A stretch of DNA of 64,000 nt from Pseudomonadota bacterium (GCA_040756595.1 JBFLYR010000004.1:22695-86694); one strand, 5' to 3'; shown: positions 6,702 to 63,495, counted from the first letter of the stretch. Notes: generated by a model from the letters alone, not told the origin. Translations and numbers: made by a program.

Positions 6702-6725
6702 TCCACCTCCTTCCCGAGTTTTGCC

Positions 6726-7415
6726 GTGTCCCGACTGCTGAAGTCGATACTTCTATTTGTTGCGATCGTCATCGCCTTGCTGGCAGCACCATTGCTGTTT
6801 ATCTCGGATGAGGGCAAGCCTGTCCAGCAACCTGCAGAGGGATTGCCATGGCAAATCGAATTGCTGGCCGAAGGCCGCACACGTGTTTTTGGTCTGTCGC
6901 CGGGGAGTAGTACGCTTGACGACGCACGCGCACGCTTTGGTCCCGATGCCCAGATTGCTATGATCATCGCCAAAGGCGAAACGGGTTCGATTGAGGCTTA
7001 CTACGAAAGCCTCACTGCAGGTTTTGTCACCGGAAAGATGATCCTCACGCTGGAAACGACGATCGAGCAACGCGAAGCGATGCTCAAGCGTGCCATCAAG
7101 GCTGAATTCATGGAAAGCACGACCCGACGCATAACTCTGGCTGAAAGCGACTTGCAATCACTGACACAGGCTAAGATTTCTGCACTCGCGTTCATCCCCT
7201 CGGCGAATCTTTCGGAAGAGGTCGTCCTGCAGCGTTTCGGCCCACCTGCCGAACGTGTCCGCTCAAGTGAGCATGCGGAGCATTTTCTTTATCCAGCCAA
7301 GGGGCTCGACCTGCGGCTGGATGCCAAGGGCAAGGAATTGCTGCAATATGTGGCACCCAGCGAATTTTCCCGTTTGCGCGACCCGTTGCTCGCGGCAGCG
7401 AAGCAGGGCGCTTAA
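6726..7415 (+). CDS. Hypothetical membrane-anchored protein
   Basis: 229-aa ORF with a GTG start and an N-terminal hydrophobic anchor (LLKSILLFVAIVIALLAAPLLF). I recognise no family. The codon usage looks coding. Confidence 0.55.
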   Translation: MSRLLKSILLFVAIVIALLAAPLLFISDEGKPVQQPAEGLPWQIELLAEGRTRVFGLSPGSSTLDDARARFGPDAQIAMIIAKGETGSIEAYYESLTAGFVTGKMILTLETTIEQREAMLKRAIKAEFMESTTRRITLAESDLQSLTQAKISALAFIPSANLSEEVVLQRFGPPAERVRSSEHAEHFLYPAKGLDLRLDAKGKELLQYVAPSEFSRLRDPLLAAAKQGA

Positions 7416-9938: not shown

Positions 9939-9962
9939 AAAGTCGGCGCTGGCGGGACGGCA
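9939..9962 (+). repeat. 24-nt dispersed repeat, copy 1 (perfect)
   Basis: AAAGTCGGCGCTGGCGGGACGGCA. It is intergenic between the convergent PCuAC and metY genes and ends 1 nt before the metY stop codon. An upstream CCAGCGCCG (9927-9935) pairs with element nt 6-14. Confidence 0.95.
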
Positions 9963-11386: not shown

Positions 11387-12316
11387 ATGCAAATCGCCAG
11401 CAACATCATTGAACTGATCGGCAACACCCCGCTGGTCAAGCTCAACCGCCTGAACACGACTCGGGCCACGATCGCGTTGAAGCTCGAATATTTCAACCCC
11501 GCGCACAGCGTCAAGGATCGCATCGCGGCGGCGATGATCGAGGCCGCCGAGCGTGCCGGCAAGATCAAGCCGGACACGATCATCCTCGAACCGACTTCCG
11601 GCAACACTGGCATCGGCCTCGCGATGGTCTGTGCGGCGCGCGGTTACAAGGCGACCTTCGTGATGCCCGAGACGATGAGCCGCGAGCGCAAGCTGATGCT
11701 CAAGGCCTTCGGCGCCGAACTGATCCTCACGCCCGGTCCGGAAGGCATGCCCGGCGCGATCAAGAAGGCGAACGAACTCGCGGCGGCCGATCCGCGTTAC
11801 TTCATCCCGCAGCAGTTTGATAACCCGGCCAACCCGACGATCCACCGCAAGACGACCGCCGAGGAAATCTGGCGTGATACCGATGGCCTGGTCGATATCT
11901 TCGTCTCGGGTATCGGCACGGGCGGCACGATCACCGGCGTGGGCGAAGTGCTCAAGGCGAAGAAGCCCGGCGTGCAGATCGTCGCGGTCGAACCCGATGC
12001 CAGCCCGGTGCTGTCCGGCGGCGCGCGTGGCCCGCACCCGATTCAGGGCATCGGCGCCGGCTTCGTGCCCAGCATTCTCAACACCAAGGTCTACGACGAG
12101 ATCGTGCGCGTCAAGAACGATGATGCGCTCACCACCGCACGTCGCCTTGCCAGCGAGGAAGGCCTGATGGTCGGCATCTCCTCCGGTGCCGCGGTGTGGT
12201 CGGCGCTGGAAGTCGCCAAGCGTCCCGAGAATGCCGGCAAACTGATCGTCGTCGTGATTCCTTCCTTTGGCGAGCGCTATCTCTCCACGGTGCTCTATCA
12301 GCATTTAGAAGTGTAA
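11387..12316 (+). CDS. cysK: Cysteine synthase A (O-acetylserine sulfhydrylase)
   Basis: 309 aa with NPAHSVKDR (PLP lysine), [12 protein letters not shown] and [10 protein letters not shown] motifs. Confidence 0.93.
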
Positions 12317-12355
12317 GAAGGGGGGCAGGGCGCGTGCTACCATGCCGCGCCCGCC

Positions 12356-15990: not shown

Positions 15991-17070
15991 ATGACCGATC
16001 TGTTTTCACCTGCCCGTTTCGGCGCCATCGAGCTTGCCAACCGCATCGTGATGTCGTCGCTGACGCGTAACCGCGCGGGGGCGGGCAACGTGCCGACGCC
16101 GCTGGTGGCCGAGTACTACCGGCAGCGCGCCAGCGCCGGCCTGATCCTCACCGAGGCGTCGCCGATCTGCCCGGCGGGGCACGGCTATCCGCGCACGCCG
16201 GGCATTCACAGCGAGGCGCAGATCGCCGGCTGGCAGGGCGTGACCGATGCGGTGCATCGTGCCGGCGGCAAGATCGCCCTGCAGATTTGGCATGTGGGCC
16301 GCATCTCGCATCCGGATTTGCAGCCCGGCGGCCAGTTGCCCGTTGCGCCGTCGGCGCTCAAGCCGGCCGGCCAGACGTTCACGGGCACGGGCATGAAGGA
16401 CTTCGTCACACCGCGCGCGCTCGCGACGGACGAGATTCCCGGGCTGGTGGCCACGTATGCGCAAGCGGCGAAGAATGCGCTGGATGCCGGCTTCGACGGC
16501 GTCGAGGTGCATGCCGGCAACGGCTATCTGATCGACCAGTTCCTGCGTTCGTCGACCAACCAGCGCACCGATGCCTACGGCGGCAGCAAGGAGAAGCGCG
16601 CCCGCCTGCTGCTGGAAGTGCTCGATGCCGTGGCCGGCGCCATCGGCAACGATCGCGTCGGCCTGCGGCTCTCGCCGGTCACGCCCTTCAACGACATCCG
16701 CGACGACGCGCCGCAGGACACCTTCGACTACGTCGTGACGCAACTGAACCCACGCCGGCTGGCCTTCCTCGACATCCTGCAGGGCACCGGCGGTTCGCCG
16801 CGCGAGCAGTGGGAACCGTTCGACTACGACCGCCTGCGTGATCTGTACGAAGGCAACCTGATCCTCAACAACGGTTACGACTTTGCCAGCGCGCAAGCGG
16901 CGCTCAGTGCGGGCAAGGCCGACGCCGTTGCCTACGGCCGGCTGCTGCTGGCGAATCCCGATCTCGTCGAACGTTTCCGCCGCGGCGCGCCGCTCAACCA
17001 GCCGGACTACGACAGGCTCTACGTCGGCGAGGAAAAGGGCTACACCGACTATCCCGCGCTGACAGGCTGA
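15991..17070 (+). CDS. nemA: NADH:flavin oxidoreductase / N-ethylmaleimide reductase (Old Yellow Enzyme family)
   Basis: 359 aa. It is collinear with E. coli NemA as recalled (PLTRxRA, EYYRQRASAGLI, HxANGYLxxQFL, GYTDYP at the C-terminus). Confidence 0.85.
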   Translation: MTDLFSPARFGAIELANRIVMSSLTRNRAGAGNVPTPLVAEYYRQRASAGLILTEASPICPAGHGYPRTPGIHSEAQIAGWQGVTDAVHRAGGKIALQIWHVGRISHPDLQPGGQLPVAPSALKPAGQTFTGTGMKDFVTPRALATDEIPGLVATYAQAAKNALDAGFDGVEVHAGNGYLIDQFLRSSTNQRTDAYGGSKEKRARLLLEVLDAVAGAIGNDRVGLRLSPVTPFNDIRDDAPQDTFDYVVTQLNPRRLAFLDILQGTGGSPREQWEPFDYDRLRDLYEGNLILNNGYDFASAQAALSAGKADAVAYGRLLLANPDLVERFRRGAPLNQPDYDRLYVGEEKGYTDYPALTG

Positions 17071-18189: not shown

Positions 18190-18683
18190 AGGTATTTGGC
18201 TTTGCCGGCTATTCCGGCTCGGGCAAGACGACGCTGATCGAGCAGCTGATTCCGCGCTTCACGGCGCGCGGGTTGCGCGTGTCGCTGATCAAGCATACCC
18301 ACCACAATTTCGACGTGGATCATCCGGGCAAGGATTCCTACCGCCATCGCGCGGCGGGTGCGGGCGAGGTGCTGCTGACCTGCGATACGCGCTGGGTGCT
18401 GATGCACGAACTGCGCGGCGCGACCGAGCCGACGCTGGCGGAACAGTTGCAGGTGTTGTCGCCCTGCGACCTCGTGCTGGTGGAGGGGTTCAAGCAGACG
18501 CCGATCTCCAAGCTCGAAATCCATCGCCCATCCTATGGCAAGCCGCCGATCTGGCCCGAGAATAAGAGCGTGGTCGCGGTGGCGACCGATGGCCAGATCG
18601 ATTGCCCGCTGCCGAAACTTGACCTCAACGACCCGGACGCCATCGTCCAATTCATCCTCGATTATCTGGATCGCCCATGCTGA
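18186..18683 (+). CDS. mobB: Molybdopterin-guanine dinucleotide biosynthesis adaptor protein MobB
   Basis: 165 aa, beginning MKVFGFAGYSGSGKTTLIEQLI (P-loop), with a LVEGFK motif. Confidence 0.88.
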   Translation: MKVFGFAGYSGSGKTTLIEQLIPRFTARGLRVSLIKHTHHNFDVDHPGKDSYRHRAAGAGEVLLTCDTRWVLMHELRGATEPTLAEQLQVLSPCDLVLVEGFKQTPISKLEIHRPSYGKPPIWPENKSVVAVATDGQIDCPLPKLDLNDPDAIVQFILDYLDRPC

Positions 18684-19978
18684 GTTACGAAGAAGCCCTC
18701 GATCATTTGCTTGCCGCCGCAGAGCCCGTGGCGGAAACGAAGCAGTTGCCACTCTCGGTTGCACGCGGCCGCATCCTCGCCGAAGCGGTCGCTTCGACCG
18801 TGACGGTGCCGCCGCTCGACAACAGCGCGATGGACGGCTATGCGGTGCGCTGCGCGGATGTCCAACAGACCGGTGTGGCATTGCCCATATCGCAGCGCAT
18901 CCCGGCGGGCAGCGTCGGCCATGCGCTCGCAGCCGGTACGGCAGCGCGCATCTTCACCGGCGCGCCGGTACCGGCCGGTGCCGATGCGGTGGTGATGCAG
19001 GAATATTGCACGCAAATGAGCGAGCACGGCCCCGATGGCAGGGTGATCGTCAATCAGGTGCCGAAGCCCGGCCAGAACATCCGCCGTGCGGGCGAGGACA
19101 TCACTGCCGGCGCCGCCGTGCTGCAAGCCGGCACGCGCATCGGCGCGGCCGAGATCGGCCTCGCGGCCTCGATCGGCATCGCGCAACTGCCGGTGCGGCG
19201 CCACCTGCGCGTCGCGCTGCTGTCGACCGGCGACGAGCTGACCGAACCCGGCAATCCCCTGCCGCCGGGCGGCATCTACAACTCGAACCGCCATTTCCTG
19301 CGTGCGATGTTCGAGCAGATGGGTTGCACGGTGACCGATGCCGGCCATGTGCCGGACACGCTCGATGCGACGCGTGCGGCGCTGCGCGCGGCGGCGGAAG
19401 CGCACGACCTGATCGTCACCTCCGGCGGCGTGTCGGTGGGCGAGGAAGATCACGTCAAGCCGGCGGTCGAGGCGGAAGGCGCGCTGTCGCTGTGGAAGAT
19501 CGCCATCAAGCCGGGCAAACCGCTGGCCTTCGGCCATGTGCGAAAAGTCGGCGCTGGGCCGTCCCAAGCCGACGCCCCCCCTGTGGGGGGCAGCGAGCCG
19601 GGTTTGCGAGCGAGGGGGGCCAATAAAGTCGGCGCTGGCGGGACGGCATTCATCGGCCTGCCGGGCAACCCGGTTTCCTGCTTCGTGACCTTCCTGCTGT
19701 TCCTGCGCCCCTATGTGCTGAAGCGCATGGGCATGGCGACCACCTTGCCGCTGGCGCGTCAACTCGTGTCGGCGTCCGACTGGACCAAGCCCGAGGATCG
19801 GCGCAGCTTCCTGCGCGCGCGCATCGCGCCGGACGGCCGCGTCGAGTTGTATCCGAACCAGAGTTCCGGCGTGCTGACCTCCTGCGCCTGGGCCGACGGA
19901 CTGGTGGATGTCGAGGCGAACAAGACCTTCAAGGCGGGCGACCCGGTGCGCTATCTCGCCTTCGCCGACTTGCTATAG
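18677..19978 (+). CDS. moeA: Molybdopterin molybdenumtransferase MoeA (carries an in-frame insertion of about 35 codons)
   Basis: 433 aa with the motifs PPLDNSAMDGYAV, SGGVSVGEEDH, KPGKPLAFG and GLPGNPVS. The insertion lies between the last two motifs. Confidence 0.9.
   Translation: MLSYEEALDHLLAAAEPVAETKQLPLSVARGRILAEAVASTVTVPPLDNSAMDGYAVRCADVQQTGVALPISQRIPAGSVGHALAAGTAARIFTGAPVPAGADAVVMQEYCTQMSEHGPDGRVIVNQVPKPGQNIRRAGEDITAGAAVLQAGTRIGAAEIGLAASIGIAQLPVRRHLRVALLSTGDELTEPGNPLPPGGIYNSNRHFLRAMFEQMGCTVTDAGHVPDTLDATRAALRAAAEAHDLIVTSGGVSVGEEDHVKPAVEAEGALSLWKIAIKPGKPLAFGHVRKVGAGPSQADAPPVGGSEPGLRARGANKVGAGGTAFIGLPGNPVSCFVTFLLFLRPYVLKRMGMATTLPLARQLVSASDWTKPEDRRSFLRARIAPDGRVELYPNQSSGVLTSCAWADGLVDVEANKTFKAGDPVRYLAFADLL
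19544..19557 (+). repeat. 24-nt dispersed repeat, copy 5 (5' 14 nt only)
   Basis: AAAGTCGGCGCTGG is followed by GCCGTCCCAAGCCGAC, which resembles a deleted reverse-orientation copy. It lies in frame in moeA. Confidence 0.7.
19625..19648 (+). repeat. 24-nt dispersed repeat, copy 6 (perfect)
   Basis: AAAGTCGGCGCTGGCGGGACGGCA lies in frame in moeA and is read as KVGAGGTA. Confidence 0.95.
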
Positions 19979-22999: not shown

Positions 23000-25594
<2,595 letters not shown>

Positions 25595-33175: not shown

Positions 33176-33199
33176 AAAGTCGGCGCTGGCAGGACGGCA
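33176..33199 (+). repeat. 24-nt dispersed repeat, copy 9 (1 substitution)
   Basis: AAAGTCGGCGCTGGCAGGACGGCA begins immediately after the TGA stop codon of the 32348 methyltransferase. Confidence 0.93.
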
Positions 33200-35864: not shown

Positions 35865-35888
35865 TGCCGTCCCGCCAGTGCCGACTTT
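35865..35888 (-). repeat. 24-nt dispersed repeat, copy 10 (1 substitution)
   Basis: The + strand reads TGCCGTCCCGCCAGTGCCGACTTT. The copy is in gene-sense orientation and begins 6 nt after the ybiT stop codon. Confidence 0.93.
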
Positions 35889-37590: not shown

Positions 37591-38298
37591 ATGAAAACAC
37601 TGACATTGGAAAAAATCCTGCAATCGCAGGGCTTCGGCACGAAGAAAATGTGCCGCTACATGGTGCTGGACGGTTTGGTGGAAATCGGCGGCGAGGTTGT
37701 GGACGATGTGCGCGCCGAGTTCGATCCCGCCAATCTCGAATTCACGGTCGATGGCGCAGCGTGGCAATACCGCGAACACGTCTATCTCGCGCTCAACAAG
37801 CCGACTGGCGTCGAATGCTCGCGCCGGCCGGCGGTCCATCGCGGTGTGCTCTCGCTGCTGCCCGACCCATTCACCGCGCGCGACGTGCAGCCGGTCGGCC
37901 GGCTCGACCACGACACCACCGGCCTGCTGCTGCTTTCGGACGACGGCGCCTTTATCCATTCCCAGTCGCATCCCAAGCGCCATGTGCCGAAAACCTATGT
38001 GGCGACCACGCATGAACCCGTGACGCCGGAACTGGTTGCCAAGCTGCAAGCTGGCGTGAAGCTGATGGACGAACCGGCGCTGCTCAATGCACAGGCACGG
38101 CAGGTCGGCGCATGCGAGATCGAGATCGTGCTCGACATGGGCAAATACCACCAGGTGAAGCGCATGCTCGCCGCCGCCGGCAGCCATTGCGTCGCGTTGC
38201 GGCGTACCGCGATCGGACAATTGACGCTGGCGTCGCTCGGTCTAGCCGAGGGCGAATGGTGTTATCTGGACGAGGCACAACGCGCACTGCTGGTATAA
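37591..38298 (+). CDS. rsuA: 16S rRNA pseudouridine synthase (RsuA family; S4 domain plus catalytic GRLD)
   Basis: 235 aa from ATG 37591, with the motifs ALNKPTGVECS, VGRLDHDTTGLLLLSDDG, KTYVAT and GKYHQVKRM. Confidence 0.75.
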   Translation: MKTLTLEKILQSQGFGTKKMCRYMVLDGLVEIGGEVVDDVRAEFDPANLEFTVDGAAWQYREHVYLALNKPTGVECSRRPAVHRGVLSLLPDPFTARDVQPVGRLDHDTTGLLLLSDDGAFIHSQSHPKRHVPKTYVATTHEPVTPELVAKLQAGVKLMDEPALLNAQARQVGACEIEIVLDMGKYHQVKRMLAAAGSHCVALRRTAIGQLTLASLGLAEGEWCYLDEAQRALLV

Positions 38299-41942: not shown

Positions 41943-43184
41943 ACGTGCGGCGGCCACGCCGCTCCTGACCGCGCCTTCGAGCGTGGCAGGGTAATCCCCA
42001 GCCACGTAGTCGCCCGCCAGCCAGACGTTCGGCAACCCGGTTGCTGTTGGTGGTCGCTCCAGGCTTGGCGTACAGGCGAAGGTGGCGCGCTTTTCCTCGA
42101 TCACCCAATGCTTGAGTGGCGGTCGCAGGCCGGGCAGCAGCGCGGCGATCTGGGCATGGATGGAAGCGGCCAGCGCGTCGTGATCGAGTTCCTGCCACGG
42201 GCCGGTGCCGCTGATGACTGCCGCGAGGATGCCGGGTTGGCCACAGAGCGCGCCGCGGTCGAAAATCCACTGGGCATAACCATTGTCCAGGCCGATCATC
42301 GGGAAGGGCAGCAGCGTGGCACCGGGATAGGCGAGGTAGCAGGTGGCGATGGGTTGCCAGTCGAACCGGAACCGTGCGGCAATCTCTGGCAGCAGCGCCG
42401 CCAGATGGTAGGGCGCGACGGCGATGACCTTGTGGTCGAAGCGGCCGAGTTCGTTGAGTTCCGCCAGCGTCCGGATGCGGGTGCCGCGGACGACACGGCC
42501 GCCATGACTTGCGATGAAACGTGCCGCCGGCTCGGGGAACAGGCTGGAAAAATCGGTCGCCGGCAGCAGCAGGTCGGAGGCCGCTCGATCGGCGGCGAGG
42601 CTGTCGCGCAGCACATTGAGGAAAACCTGTGCCGAAGCGCTGGCGACGGGTGTGTTGAGCGCGGCGAGGCAGAGCGGTTCCCAGAGGAAGCGCCGCACGC
42701 GTTCGGGTTGCCGATGGGCGGAGAAGAGGTCGGCGGCGCTCAAGTCTTCGGGCAAGCGGAAGTTGCGCGCCTGTTGCGCGCGCATGAAACGGATGGCGGC
42801 AATCTTGTCCTTGAACGAAAGCCCGCGGGCCGTGAGCAGCGCCCAGCCGAGATGCAGCGGAGCCGGCAGATTGGGCGCGGCCACTTTGACTTGTCCGGGG
42901 AACTCCAGATGCAAGAACTCACGCTTTAGTGGCTTTAGTGCCGTCCTGTCAGCGCCGACTTTTTCCATCAAGCGCAGAGTTTCGCGATAGGCACCGACGA
43001 GGATGTGCGCGCCGTTGTCGACGGTCATGCTGTCGAGCGTGACGGCACGGGCGCGGCCGCCGAGCGTGTGAGAAGCCTCGAAAACTTCGACGGCCACGCC
43101 GGCCTCTGCCAGTTCGACCGCGCTGGCGAGGCCGGCGTAACCCGCCCCAATCACGGCTACTTTCGTGGCTACGCGCGCAGCCAT
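41907..43184 (-). CDS. hpnE: Hydroxysqualene dehydroxylase (FAD-dependent amine-oxidase family)
   Basis: 425 aa from ATG 43184 with the dinucleotide fold VAVIGAGYAGLASAVELA. It is the last gene of an hpnC-hpnD-hpnE arrangement. Confidence 0.8.
   Translation of the reverse strand: MAARVATKVAVIGAGYAGLASAVELAEAGVAVEVFEASHTLGGRARAVTLDSMTVDNGAHILVGAYRETLRLMEKVGADRTALKPLKREFLHLEFPGQVKVAAPNLPAPLHLGWALLTARGLSFKDKIAAIRFMRAQQARNFRLPEDLSAADLFSAHRQPERVRRFLWEPLCLAALNTPVASASAQVFLNVLRDSLAADRAASDLLLPATDFSSLFPEPAARFIASHGGRVVRGTRIRTLAELNELGRFDHKVIAVAPYHLAALLPEIAARFRFDWQPIATCYLAYPGATLLPFPMIGLDNGYAQWIFDRGALCGQPGILAAVISGTGPWQELDHDALAASIHAQIAALLPGLRPPLKHWVIEEKRATFACTPSLERPPTATGLPNVWLAGDYVAGDYPATLEGAVRSGVAAARSILRETSGHQS
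42939..42962 (-). repeat. 24-nt dispersed repeat, copy 13 (2 substitutions)
   Basis: The + strand reads TGCCGTCCTGTCAGCGCCGACTTT. The copy lies in sense and in frame in hpnE and is read as KVGADRTA. Confidence 0.9.
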
Positions 43185-44002: not shown

Positions 44003-44823
44003 AATGCTTTCCAGAGAACGCGCGGCCAATCGAGTGCGCTGAGTACCGGACGCCGATTGAAGACGTCGTAGTCGGCCGCTTCGATCTTGGCCAGAATGCA
44101 CAGGCCGCCGGCGACGATGGCGCGGATTTCCATGCCGATGCGACCCGGCAGATCGTGGCCGAGCGATGCGCCGCTCAGCATCAGCGCGCGGGCACGCTCG
44201 ACCTGAAAGCGCATCAGTGCGCAAAAGTCGGCGCTGGCGAGACGGCTGCTCAGGGACTGTTCGGTCACGGCAAAACGCTTCATGTCTTCCTGCGGCAAAT
44301 AGATGCGGCCATTGTGCCCCTTATCGAGGTCGATGCCGACATCCTGCCAGTGATTGATGAGCTGCAGGGCGGAACAGATGGCGTCCGAGCGGCGCAGCTT
44401 GTCCGGGGTGGTGGTACCAAAGAGGTGCAGCAGCAAGCGGCCGACCGGATTCGCCGAACGGCGGCAGTAGTCCATCAACTCATCGTAACTGGCGTAGCGG
44501 TCCTTGACGACATCCTGCGCGAAGGCGTCGAGCAGGTCGCGAAAGAGCTGGAGGGGGAGTTTGTACTCTTGGATGTGCGGCCGCAGCTGCAGGAAAACCG
44601 GGTGTGCCGTCGGTTCGCTACGCTCGATGCGATCCAGTTCGGCCTGATAGCCGGCCAGCAGGCGCAGGCGTTCTTCCGGTGGCAGGCTGCCTTCATCGGC
44701 GAAATCGTCTGCCGAACGGGCGAAGACGTAGATCGCCGTTACGGCAGGTCGCAAGTGCGCCGGCAGCAAGAGCGAAGCAACGGGGAAATTCTCGTAGTGA
44801 TCCGGTTTTTCGGGCGGGGCCAT
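43999..44823 (-). CDS. hpnC: Squalene synthase HpnC
   Basis: 274 aa with the motifs HYENFPVAS, YVFARSADDFADEG and INHWQDVGIDLDKGHNGRIYLP. Confidence 0.82.
   Translation of the reverse strand: MAPPEKPDHYENFPVASLLLPAHLRPAVTAIYVFARSADDFADEGSLPPEERLRLLAGYQAELDRIERSEPTAHPVFLQLRPHIQEYKLPLQLFRDLLDAFAQDVVKDRYASYDELMDYCRRSANPVGRLLLHLFGTTTPDKLRRSDAICSALQLINHWQDVGIDLDKGHNGRIYLPQEDMKRFAVTEQSLSSRLASADFCALMRFQVERARALMLSGASLGHDLPGRIGMEIRAIVAGGLCILAKIEAADYDVFNRRPVLSALDWPRVLWKAL
44224..44247 (+). repeat. 24-nt dispersed repeat, copy 14 (2 substitutions)
   Basis: AAAGTCGGCGCTGGCGAGACGGCT lies antisense inside hpnC and is read as SRLASADF. Confidence 0.88.
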
Positions 44824-61155: not shown

Positions 61156-63495
61156 CTATGACGCCGGCTGCAGGCCGGTCGGCTTGAGTTTGGACGGAAT
61201 GGCGTGGCCCTTGCGGGCACGCTGGCCGCGATAGGCGGCGGCATCCTTGCCGGACAACTTCCAGTCGGTCGGTTTACCCCCTCGGCCACTACCGGTGACG
61301 ATGAAACTGTCGGCACCGACAGCGACGGCGGCCAGCTCGTCCTTGGCGTCAAGCGTCTGGATGATGGTGCCGCGCCCCTTGGCCATGGTCTTGAGTTCGG
61401 CGAGCGGGAAGAGCAGCAGCCGGCCGCAGGCCGTAATCGCTGCTGCCGTCCCGCCAGCGCCGACTTTTGCCGGGACGAGCGGCTTCTCGCCCTTGTCGAG
61501 CGACATGAAGGCCTTGCCGGCGCGGTTGCGCGAGACGAGATCGGCAATGCCGGCGATGAAGCCGTAGCCGCCGGAATTGGCGAACAGGTACTGCGTTTCC
61601 GGCGCATCGGTGAGCGCGTGGGCAAGCTTGCTGCCGTCCTGGAAGTCGACCAGCGTGGTGATCGGCACCCCGTCGCCGCGACCGCCCGGCAGGTCGGCCA
61701 CGCGTACGCTGTACGCTCTGCCATTGGTGTCGATGACGACCAGCGGCCAGATCGTGCGGCTTTCCTGAACGATATAGGGGAAGTCACCGGTCTTGTATCC
61801 GATGCTGGCCGGATCGATGCCATGGCCCTGGCGCGTGCGCACCCAGCCGTTCTTAGAGACGATCACGGTCACCGGCTCGTCGGGGATCGCGACTTCCGCG
61901 GCGGTCACCGGGGCGACGGCCTCAATTAGCGTACGGCGCTCGTCGCCGTATTTCTTCGCGTCCTCGGTGATCTCGCGCACGACGAGTTTGGTCAACTCCT
62001 TGCGGTCTTCGAGGATGCGGCGCAGTTCCTTCGCTTCCTCGGCCAGCGCCTTCTGTTCCTGCTCGATCTTGATGCCTTCGAGTTTCGCGAGCTGGCGCAG
62101 GCGGATTTCGAGGATGTCCTCGGCCTGAATCTCCGAAAGCTTGAACTTGGCCATCAGTTCGGCCTTGGGTTCGTCGGCCTCGCGGATGGTCTTGATGATC
62201 TTGTCGATCGACAGGAAGGCGAGCAGGCGGCCAGCGAGGATGTGCAGGCGGCGCTCGACTTCGCAGAGGCGGTGGGCGGAACGACGCTCGACGGTGGCAT
62301 GGCGGAACTGCACCCATTCGTGCAGCACCTGCAGCAGGTTTTTTTGCGCCGGCCGGCCATCGGTGCCCATCATGGTCATGTTGACCGACACGTTGGCTTC
62401 GAGGCTGGTGCGCGCGAGCAGTACGGCCATGAACTCGTCCTGCGGCACCTTCGACGTGCGCGGCTCCAGCACGATGCGCACGGGGTCCTTTTCGTTCGAT
62501 TCGTCGCGCACGGCGTCGAGCACGCCGAGCATCACCTGCTTGAGGTTCTTCTGCTCCTGCGAGACATCCTTCTTGCCCGGGCGTGCTTGCGGGTTGGTGA
62601 CGGCCTCGATTTCCGAGAGTACTTGCGCCGTGGAAACACCATGCGGCAGTTCGTAGACGATGACGCGCCACTGGCCGCGCGCCAGTTCCTCGATGCGCCA
62701 GCGGCAGCGCATGCGGACGCTGCCGCGGCCGGATTCGTAGGCGGCGCGGATGTCGGCATGGAGCGAGATGATCTGGCCGCCGCCGGGAAAGTCCGGGCCG
62801 GGCAGGGCGGCAAGCACTTCATCGAGCTGCGCACTCGGTTTGCGGATCACCAACTTGAGTGCTTCAGCCACTTCGCGCAGGTTGTGCGGTGGAATCTCGG
62901 TGGCCATGCCGACGGCGATGCCCGAGGCACCGTTGAGCAGCACGAAGGGCAGGCGGGCGGGCAGCAGCGACGGCTCGGTCATCGTGCCGTCATAGTTGGG
63001 CACGAAGTCGACCGTGCCCTTGTCGATCTCCGCTAGCAGCAGTTCTGCAATCGGTGTCAGGCGGCATTCGGTGTAGCGCATCGCCGCCGCGCCGTCGCCG
63101 TCGCGCGAGCCGAAGTTGCCTTGGCCGTCGACCAGCGGATAGCGCAGCGAGAAGTCCTGGGCGACGCGCACCATGGCGTCGTAGACGCTGCTGTCGCCGT
63201 GGGGGTGGAACTTGCCGATGACGTCGCCGACCACGCGCGCCGACTTGACGTGCTTGGCCGTCGACGGCAGGCGCATGTCGTTCATCGCGTGGAGGATGCG
63301 GCGCTGCACCGGCTTCAAGCCGTCTTCGACCTGCGGCAGGGCGCGCGATTTCACCACGCTCATCGCGTAGGCGAGGTAGGCGCGCTCTGCATAACTGTCG
63401 AGGGGCAGCGCCTCGCCTTCTGCAAAAGTCGGCTCTGGTGGGACGGCAGGGGGCGGCAGATCTGCCGCTGCTTCGAAAAGATCAGGCGTGTTCAT
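61156..63495 (-). CDS. parC: DNA topoisomerase IV subunit A
   Basis: 779 aa with the motifs [11 protein letters not shown], the AAMRYTE catalytic Tyr block and a C-terminal beta-pinwheel. Its start overlaps the parE stop codon (ATGA). Confidence 0.93.
61444..61467 (-). repeat. 24-nt dispersed repeat, copy 19 (perfect)
   Basis: The + strand reads TGCCGTCCCGCCAGCGCCGACTTT. The copy lies in sense and in frame in the parC C-terminal domain and is read as KVGAGGTA. Confidence 0.95.
63425..63448 (+). repeat. 24-nt dispersed repeat, copy 20 (2 substitutions)
   Basis: AAAGTCGGCTCTGGTGGGACGGCA lies antisense in the parC N-terminal extension and is read as AVPPEPTF. Confidence 0.9.

Follow-up and report, generated by a model that had tools for sequence, protein, structure and literature searches.

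This study concerns a 105-nt block inside moeA, the gene of molybdopterin molybdotransferase, in a 64,000-nt stretch of DNA (hereafter the window) from a Pseudomonadota bacterium (GCA_040756595.1, JBFLYR010000004.1:22695-86694). We consider it probable that a 24-nt motif already resident in moeA, designated S, was interrupted by an 81-nt in-frame copy of a small mobile hairpin element, and that this copy is translated as a disordered surface loop. This conclusion is carried by the anatomy of the block, its membership in a family of similar units, the dispersal of that family over other loci, the patchy distribution of the unit among MoeA orthologues, and a similarity between copies that does not follow orthology. 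It is from the distribution of the copies alone that we regard the element as mobile, and the route of its spread is inferred.

The moeA gene (18677..19978, + strand, from the list of open reading frames) is intact, codes for 433 aa and stays in frame through the element. Its product is identical to NCBI MEW6514538.1 and E. coli MoeA matches it at 2.9e-82. The Pfam domains MoeA_N, MoCF_biosynth and MoeA_C were found on its homologues. The block occupies positions 19544-19648, that is 105 nt or 35 codons, and 19544 is the first base of codon 290. Between the conserved motifs KPGKPLAFG and GLPGNPVS there are 40 residues in the window MoeA versus 8 in E. coli, a surplus of 32. The first-pass annotation of this DNA had described an in-frame insertion foreign to canonical MoeA; this spacing bears it out, and its 35-residue translation was correct.

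All parts of the block lie on the + strand. Directly upstream stand three codons, CATGTGCGA (His-Val-Arg, HVR; 19535..19543), recognized by alignment of the loops of 120 orthologues and by DNA comparison; they are present in many orthologues (402-aa forms) and absent from the 399-aa forms. The block itself opens with AAAGTCGGC (19544..19552), which corresponds to bases 1-9 of the resident S, now serves as the left flank of the element, and is exactly repeated at 19625-19633. Within it GTCGGC (19547-19552, S bases 4-9) forms the 5' arm of a first hairpin. The left junction after S bases 1-9 is common to 78 S-associated copies. The 15-nt loop of hairpin 1, GCTGGGCCGTCCCAA (19553..19567), contains an inner GGG/CCC mini-stem and was delimited by its near-invariance in 45 distinct hairpins and by the consensus fold; its family consensus is GCCGGGCCG[CT]CCCAA. 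The 3' arm, GCCGAC (19568..19573), complements GTCGGC of S, as seen in the minimum free energy (MFE) fold and in the arm-flank complementarity of the family. Hairpin 2 (C7/G6; 19574..19591) reads GCCCCCCC-TGT-GGGGGGC and is supported by the sequence, the MFE fold and the consensus fold; the annotated hairpin GCCCCCC-CTGT-GGGGGGC does exist, one base to the left of the 19575-19592 given for it. One compensatory variant of this hairpin, GCTCCC...GGGAGC, occurs in locus L037, and its loop positions differ among copies. The conserved right half of the element follows as a 33-nt tail, AGCGAGCCGGGTTTGCGAGCGAGGGGGGCCAAT (19592..19624), which is unique in the window and was found at 39 GTDB loci and 89 metagenome loci. 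The block closes with a perfect copy of S, AAAGTCGGCGCTGGCGGGACGGCA (19625..19648), encoding KVGAGGTA, which the orthologue loops place at the native MoeA loop position of the clade.

The inserted 81 nt can be described as a second copy of S bases 1-9 followed by a 72-nt element (15-nt loop, 6-nt arm, C7/G6 hairpin, 33-nt tail). The unit amounts to 27 codons, is free of stops in the frame used, and leaves 5/6 frames open. Both the 14-nt exact copy at 19544-19557 and the perfect 24-mer at 19625-19648 had been reported and are present. The apparent 14-nt repeat, however, resolves into 9 nt of S and a chance match of S bases 10-14 (GCTGG) to the start of the loop (GCCGG). Because GCCGG belongs to the element, the left copy usually reads GCCGG (C at position 12) and the right copy GCTGG (T); unlike the usual form, the left copy in the window reads GCTGG.

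The age of these parts was assessed in 120 MoeA homologues, 92-61% identical and all of Rhodocyclaceae type, including Sulfuricystis thermophila. The length of the loop varies in this set from 8 to about 46 residues. In the shortest forms (397 aa) it reads FG-KVGETA-FIG or FG-KVGQAD-FVG, in many 399-aa forms FG-KVG[AS][GR]GTA-FIG, and the 402-aa forms add the preceding HVR; other orthologues have S and then additional residues. The S-encoded peptide occupies the place of the native 8-10-residue loop, and most Rhodocyclaceae orthologues already have S there. The closest orthologue without the block (L004, 90% identical) reads TTTGGA, perfect S, TTCATC, and nothing more. In a repeat-free outgroup (L045) AAGGTCGGGCAGGCCGAT stands at the loop position, relative to which S-bearing moeA is two codons longer. 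Since L004 and other orthologues have an S-only loop, the addition in the window is 81 nt plus the older HVR codons, not 105 nt. The earlier count of 35 extra codons thus holds for the length of the block, but against L004 the surplus is 81 nt (27 codons) and 9 nt of HVR.

The same long loop was found in just two orthologues, P0001 (92% identical, in two JGI samples) and P0055 (70%, in an ENA assembly). Both carry the same repeat DNA, so that the long loop did not turn up in orthologues free of the repeat, which would have spoken against an insertion. Orthologues 80-90% identical are without the 81-nt unit. Also, the unit of the window differs by 1 nt from that of L035 and by 2 nt from that of L012, both at other loci, and by 3 and 7 nt from those of the orthologous loci L001 and L003. 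This patchy distribution, with a similarity that does not track orthology, points to a moeA copy that would have been gained horizontally or by copying rather than vertically.

When the internal segment was searched for elsewhere, as the first-pass annotation had proposed, copies were found at dispersed GTDB and metagenome loci. An interior 21-mer gave 39 matches in GTDB species genomes, nearly all metagenome-assembled genomes (MAGs) of Rhodocyclaceae, with unrelated flanks and identical junctions, and several of the matches came from one genome. The shared junctions are AAAGTCGGCGC[CTA]GG / GCCGTCCC... on the left and ...CCAAY NNN GTCGGCGCTGG CGGGACGGCA on the right. S-type copies are flanked by a repeated (AAA)GTCGGC, in which the first 3 nt of the right copy vary. 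A scan of metagenomes with the right half of the element gave 89 loci, about half of them S-type, and all the DNA examined held 144 copies, 78 in S and 66 generic (see below). In 34 copies the unit measures 81 nt; owing to nested extra modules others measure 84, 93 or 102 nt, and an 80-nt unit was seen in an intergenic tandem only. S-type units exist in an 84-nt version as well, relative to which the 81-nt version is 3 nt shorter; either length is a multiple of three. Two or three units may stand in tandem, and the array of L039 consists of two different unit variants. A profile search of the fetched loci returned further copies and suggests about 1 long form per 60-70 kb versus 1 S per 3.4 kb; short forms (S alone) outnumber long forms ~19 to 1.

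According to a crude gene call based on GC content at third codon positions (GC3), which underlies all coding and phase assignments of long forms and S copies given here, about 32/38 long forms are coding, and about 29 of those are in phase 0, in either orientation. The host genes include MoeA, ParC, RsmA-like, WaaA-like, HpnE-like and others. Two S sites of the window hold a long form in relatives, namely ParC at 61444 and the HpnE-like gene at 42939. The earlier suggestion of a larger element using the 24-mer as its ends is near the mark: the same 81-nt unit lies inside the 24-mer at dozens of loci, sometimes in tandem, but the right 24-mer is resident and was not inserted.

Several loci show further variation in the form of nested in-frame modules (L005, L007, L020, L025, L028; L005, L043; L006). 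The C7/G7 loop contains in one case a further hairpin of 21 nt (GGTCACCGCTTCGGGTGATTTCAT region); in S, about 21 nt (TGAAATGCCCCGCAGCGGGT region) stand between GCGGG repeats; and 12 nt in the GGGTTT region give a 93-nt unit. At L005, about 6720-6870 (orthologous to window 42939), a long form with two nested modules adjoins a long perfect inverted repeat, CGTCATTCCGGCGAAAGCCGGAATCCAG ... CTGGATTCCGGCTTTCGCCGGAATGACG, which looks like a separate repeat resembling MITEs (transposable elements of the miniature inverted-repeat type).

These dispersed copies bear on the idea of a local origin of the block, in which duplications, an inversion and slippage followed one another at the moeA repeat. Such a history would account for the internal direct and inverted matches to the 24-mer, among them the 8 nt at 19558-19565, which equal S bases 16-23 in reverse complement, and the first-pass annotation had taken GCCGTCCCAAGCCGAC for a deleted reverse copy, and the GCGAGC duplication and a third G6 run for local events, nested or successive at one site. 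We regard it as hardly credible: the inner 67 nt, which occur once within the window, recur base for base at >100 unrelated loci as one conserved unit, and this refutes local construction. The loop is conserved family-wide even without a 24-mer nearby. GCCGTCCCAAGCCGAC turns out to be the conserved loop and stem arm of the family, and the GCGAGC duplication and the G6 run are likewise conserved parts of the repeated element.

A repeat-induced misjoin inside moeA, arising from assembly or binning of a MAG, has next to no likelihood either. It is true that the window comes from a MAG contig and that in one MAG two loci (L019, L041) share one flank of the long form. Nevertheless, the reading frame is intact, and the same moeA architecture was found in two JGI samples and one ENA assembly, from different lineages; as these assemblies are independent, the structure is not an assembly artefact. 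The two loci mentioned lie on two contigs of a Sulfuritalea MAG which share the element and the right flank and differ in their left flanks, a pattern that indicates recombination at the repeat or misassembly. Also, one and the same contig sequence appears in a Thermoflexus bin and in a Methyloversatilis bin (L022 and L040), which suggests bin contamination.

An AlphaFold2 model of MoeA, made with 48 sequences, had a mean predicted local distance difference test score (pLDDT) of 78.7. Residues 292-320, between strands 283-289 and 322-328, had a pLDDT <50 and no secondary structure. The insert is predicted to be a disordered, Gly/Pro/Ala-rich extension of 27 residues at the tip of a beta-hairpin, just before GLPGNPVS. 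The conserved MoeA motifs are all intact and the position of the insert is already hypervariable among orthologues; the insert would be translated and tolerated, leaving MoeA intact. A loop selected as a protein module, altering MoeA function or partner binding, could be imagined from its position next to GLPGNPVS and from the conservation of the peptide wherever the unit is in frame 0. We find this very unlikely, as the predicted disorder, the close orthologues devoid of the unit, and the presence of the unit also in reverse orientation, in frames other than 0 and in intergenic DNA all speak against it. Variable positions within the unit moreover concentrate in hairpin loops and junctions and display no 3-base periodicity.

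Motif S is far more abundant than the unit. The window contains 18 matches with at most three mismatches, where 100 shuffles gave 0 expected, and 19 copies with at most four, again against 0 expected. They start on the + strand at 9939, 13427, 17070, 17254, 19625, 24563, 29554, 33176, 38298, 39894, 44224, 52331, 54266, 55814 and 63425, and copies marked as - strand are found at 35865, 42939, 58640 and 61444, a split of 15 to 4 irrespective of gene direction; in short loci the orientation of S gave no signal with GC skew (Spearman -0.05). About 58/87 S copies were assigned to coding regions. Among 61 non-orthologous solo copies, 17 positions are near-invariant and the boundaries are sharp except that the base at -1 is a purine in 60/61. 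The mismatch spectrum is bimodal, and S forms no hairpin and is not a palindrome.

Although the 24-mer had been taken for an inserted repeat, S behaves like a motif that arises in place. In HpnC (44224-44247, reverse orientation; SRLASADF) the length of the segment is unchanged in 120 close and about 90 distant homologues, the latter reading e.g. AGRCDDRW where the window has SRLASADF. In ParC the copy at 61444-61467 (- strand) aligns to E. coli VVIEDASDML with one residue fewer, and the S-bearing 14-residue stretch stands where E. coli reads PVVIEDASDMLLAIT. Elsewhere the length does change: the surplus at S in ClpB is +7 in the window and +3 in relatives, and differences of +9 in a helicase and -9 in an unknown protein were observed relative to an S-free outgroup. 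In ClpB four extra residues (DAAQ; 24551-24562) directly precede the S copy, as compared with L004 and L046. The view of S as an 8-codon insertion, suggested by the ClpB surplus, was dropped after the HpnC and ParC results. S is kept at orthologous sites out to Sulfuricystis while the surrounding linkers are unalignable, and the Sulfuricystis copies share the lineage-specific bases C4 and C18. By these properties S would be an in-place motif, driven or selected, of the uptake-sequence type rather than a transposed 24-mer; its length and its possible strand bias (15:4) fit this type imperfectly. A search for literature on uptake sequences in Rhodocyclales returned none.

Some observations on individual S copies can be added. 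Intergenic copies abut stop codons, whose last base doubles as the first A of S at 17070 (TGA) and at 38298 (TAA); S lies directly after TGA at 33176 and 6 nt after TAA at 35865. At 12315-12331 a decayed 15-nt remnant follows the stop of a PALP-domain gene, where the relatives L001 and L004 have an intact S. An exact 23-mer of S occurs once or twice in each of 45 viral or proviral contigs of IMG/VR (L047-L091), a count that has no denominator and is uninformative; the element core was in none of these viral contigs.

Comparison of the loci indicates that the 81-nt unit is an S-associated subfamily, with a length divisible by 3, of a larger family of ~85-nt non-autonomous hairpin elements in Betaproteobacteria of Rhodocyclaceae type. 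Generic and S-type copies share the 15-nt loop, the C7/G7 hairpin and the tail ...GCGAGCGTGGGGGGCCAT. In generic copies the stem around the loop differs in every copy and its arms are still complementary, as in the pairs CATGCCTCC/GGAGGCATG, CATGCTTCC/GGAAGCATG, GAAGCCGCC/GGCGGCTTC and GTTCCGGC/GCCGGAAC; 35/66 generic copies have 7-10 perfect stem pairs. Over the 45 distinct hairpins, 86.7% of arm-flank cells are paired versus 59.7% after shuffling (0/500 shuffles as high), 107 cells are changed on both sides versus 31 in shuffled or control sets, and the covariation score is 0.67 versus 0.19 shuffled and about 0.1-0.2 in slid controls. The difference per site is 0.47 in the arms versus 0.06 in the body, the latter value being biased low since the search pattern prescribed about half of the body. 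The left arm consists of host DNA, which in many copies includes, on the other strand, a conserved gene's start codon (CarB, MPKRTD; Def, KdsC, Maf, HemF, YbeD, NuoI). In L106, which has an S-dialect site, the arm matches the flank TACCTCGGC at 9/9 bases.

Generic copies were also seen directly upstream of gene starts in metagenome loci (L099, L105, L124, L136, L161, L162, L164, L168 and others). In these, the variable stem forms pairs with the ATG and with bases resembling a Shine-Dalgarno sequence, e.g. CATGCCTCC...GGAGGCATG, and such start-adjacent copies could sequester translation initiation sites. A consensus of the L136 type, read by hand in the sense direction, starts with ATGG and would encode an open reading frame of 26 codons, whose TGA would overlap the ATG of the gene if the second codon begins with A.

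We propose that S was already in the MoeA loop of the clade and that the 81-nt unit was copied into that S in the lineage of the window. S-type units, whose arm is constant, would most likely spread from S site to S site through the homology of S on both sides, by copy-choice or ectopic conversion, and if S paired out of register, units could be gained in tandem or deleted to leave S. As an alternative route, the units would be transposed by an enzyme provided in trans. In generic copies the arm next to the loop would be rewritten to match the new flank, at or after insertion, and we would favor for this step a quasi-palindrome template switch for which the invariant C:G pair and the inner GGG/CCC stem would serve as nucleus. 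Three other models were tried and ruled out: a CRISPR-like repeat-spacer array, given that the "spacer" is constant; an 81-nt circle integrating at a 14-nt core, given the composition of the 14-nt repeat explained above; and an IS200/IS605-type fixed target of 4-5 nt, given that no flank is conserved except the purine at -1.

The opposite direction of change must also be weighed, in which the 105-nt long form is ancestral at the moeA site, the loops with the 24-mer only are solo remnants after deletion of 81 nt, and nothing was recently gained. Direct repeats of 9-14 nt around hairpins favor deletion by slippage, an orthologous site can have the short form in one genome and the long form in another, and short forms are in excess. 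In three loci (L092, 10001-11257; L093, 6001-7239; L038, about 1235) 30-39 nt come after S and close with a further GGGACGGC (peptides such as SPDRANMGTA); this extra sequence resembles the 3' part of the element and may represent either long forms in decay or one more module. The ancestral long form nevertheless appears improbable to us. S arises in place in HpnC and ParC and needs no long-form parent; the window copy shares 93% identity with the unit of the orthologue at 70% identity, with non-orthologous copies closer still; and the generic family inserts at non-S sites, so that the unit is an independent insertion.

The insertion of the unit into a resident S remains our preferred reading, and several points weigh against it. 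The analysis revealed neither a transposase nor terminal inverted repeats nor any consistent target duplication for the element. Solo S lacks target duplications of at least 4 nt in 61 copies, as well as 1-nt duplications (base -1 versus base 24), and among generic copies target duplication is inconsistent, a few having 7-9/9 matches and most being at control level. In S-type copies the arm matches only 6/9 flank bases, the same everywhere, and is inherited, not rewritten. The folding energy of the 105 nt is not unusual for their composition (z = -0.65 and -0.75 against shuffles), which is why structure is argued here from covariation. Part of the element was fixed by the search patterns, so that variation is understated. 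Finally, the MoeA loops of L092 and L093, if decayed long forms, may reflect loss from an older long form at the moeA site.

The element is apparently undescribed. Rfam contained no family for the segment of the window (best E-value 0.49) and none at E <= 0.1 for 13 generic loci, and neither the 24-mer nor the peptides nor any of four strings from the element, taken on both strands, occurred in a paper of the searchable literature. In-frame repeats in essential genes are well documented mainly in Rickettsia, and an unrelated, abundant system in free-living Betaproteobacteria (Rhodocyclaceae hosts from wastewater and groundwater) would make this route of loop evolution more general. Such elements create length polymorphism in marker genes and apparent misassemblies in MAGs. 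A stem that matches the flank beside a ~94%-identical body calls for a mechanism, and start-codon pairing in many copies means that the element could switch the translation of neighbouring genes. More tentatively, we may be dealing with a two-layer system, in which a ~85-nt element rewrites one arm to the host flank, often with its stem over the Shine-Dalgarno sequence and start codon, and S serves as an uptake-like landing pad; we would give this less than even chances. If true, it would imply an insertion or repair mechanism without known bacterial counterpart and with a built-in effect on translation, S would possibly be the first uptake-type or driven sequence outside Neisseriaceae and Pasteurellaceae, and one subfamily of the element would be specialised on S, trimmed to a multiple of three and surviving inside genes.

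Repetitive extragenic palindromic (REP) elements are extragenic and consist of a fixed palindrome with a conserved 5' GTAG-type tetranucleotide, associated with RAYT transposases. Like REP, REPIN and BIME sequences, the present repeats are high-copy, short hairpin repeats without their own transposase, mosaic and modular, with no classical terminal inverted repeats and without consistent target duplication. Unlike REP and REPIN, S is non-palindromic and does not form a hairpin, two thirds of the copies lie within genes, long forms and S copies being mostly coding (see above), and the hairpin 1 stem has a different sequence in each copy; neither an extragenic location nor a fixed imperfect palindrome was found. 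No RAYT gene was found, though none was searched for, the DNA covered being 64 kb of the genome. BOX elements (boxA-boxB(n)-boxC) are intergenic and not constrained to multiples of 3. As in the pneumococcal BOX, the number of middle units is variable (81-nt units here number 0, 1, 2 or at least 3), with extra modules nested; unlike BOX, the units lie mostly in genes and in multiples of 3, and the sequences are unrelated. A MITE would have terminal inverted repeats; here the left end (AAAGTCGGC.../GCCGGG...) does not recur in inverted form at the right end (...GGGGGGCCAAT). Neither does a minisatellite, with copies at one locus produced by slippage, correspond to >100 dispersed loci and to a tandem in L039 with two unit variants.

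The DNA uptake sequences (DUS) of Neisseria and the uptake signal sequences (USS) of Pasteurellaceae occur about once per few kb, in genes and spacers, with 9-12-nt cores. S resembles them in density, in its presence in genes and spacers, in its in-place origin without length change, in preferred reading frames, in lineage dialects, and in being retained at orthologous sites while the flanks diverge. It differs in having 24-25 specified bases, a bimodal mismatch spectrum and a possible strand bias. TGCCGTC presumably resembles the Neisseria DUS, which we take only as a lead. Quasi-palindrome template switching, reportedly worked out by Ripley and by Lovett and co-workers, is said to rewrite one arm of an imperfect hairpin in a single step through a strand switch. 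A comparable process would explain arms that match any flank beside an invariant inner stem. To our knowledge, it is a mutational mechanism at fixed loci, and we know of no description of it as a regular step of a mobile element.

The last system to be compared is that of the Rickettsia palindromic elements (Ogata et al., 2000), which, as summarised in PMC10969869, are selfish repeats, short (~100-150 bp), non-autonomous and present in frame in unrelated housekeeping genes, where they are translated as surface loops compatible with the fold. The present unit is alike in standing in frame in unrelated protein genes without disrupting them, with phase 0 predominating. It is unlike in belonging to a different phylum with an unrelated sequence, in the embedding of the S-type unit in a second, far more abundant 24-nt motif, in its 81-nt tandems, and in the wider family having one hairpin arm that matches the host flank. 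The Rickettsia palindromic elements are the closest system in function, as a class defined by function and not by homology, and the mosaic REP/BIME and BOX elements are the closest in architecture.

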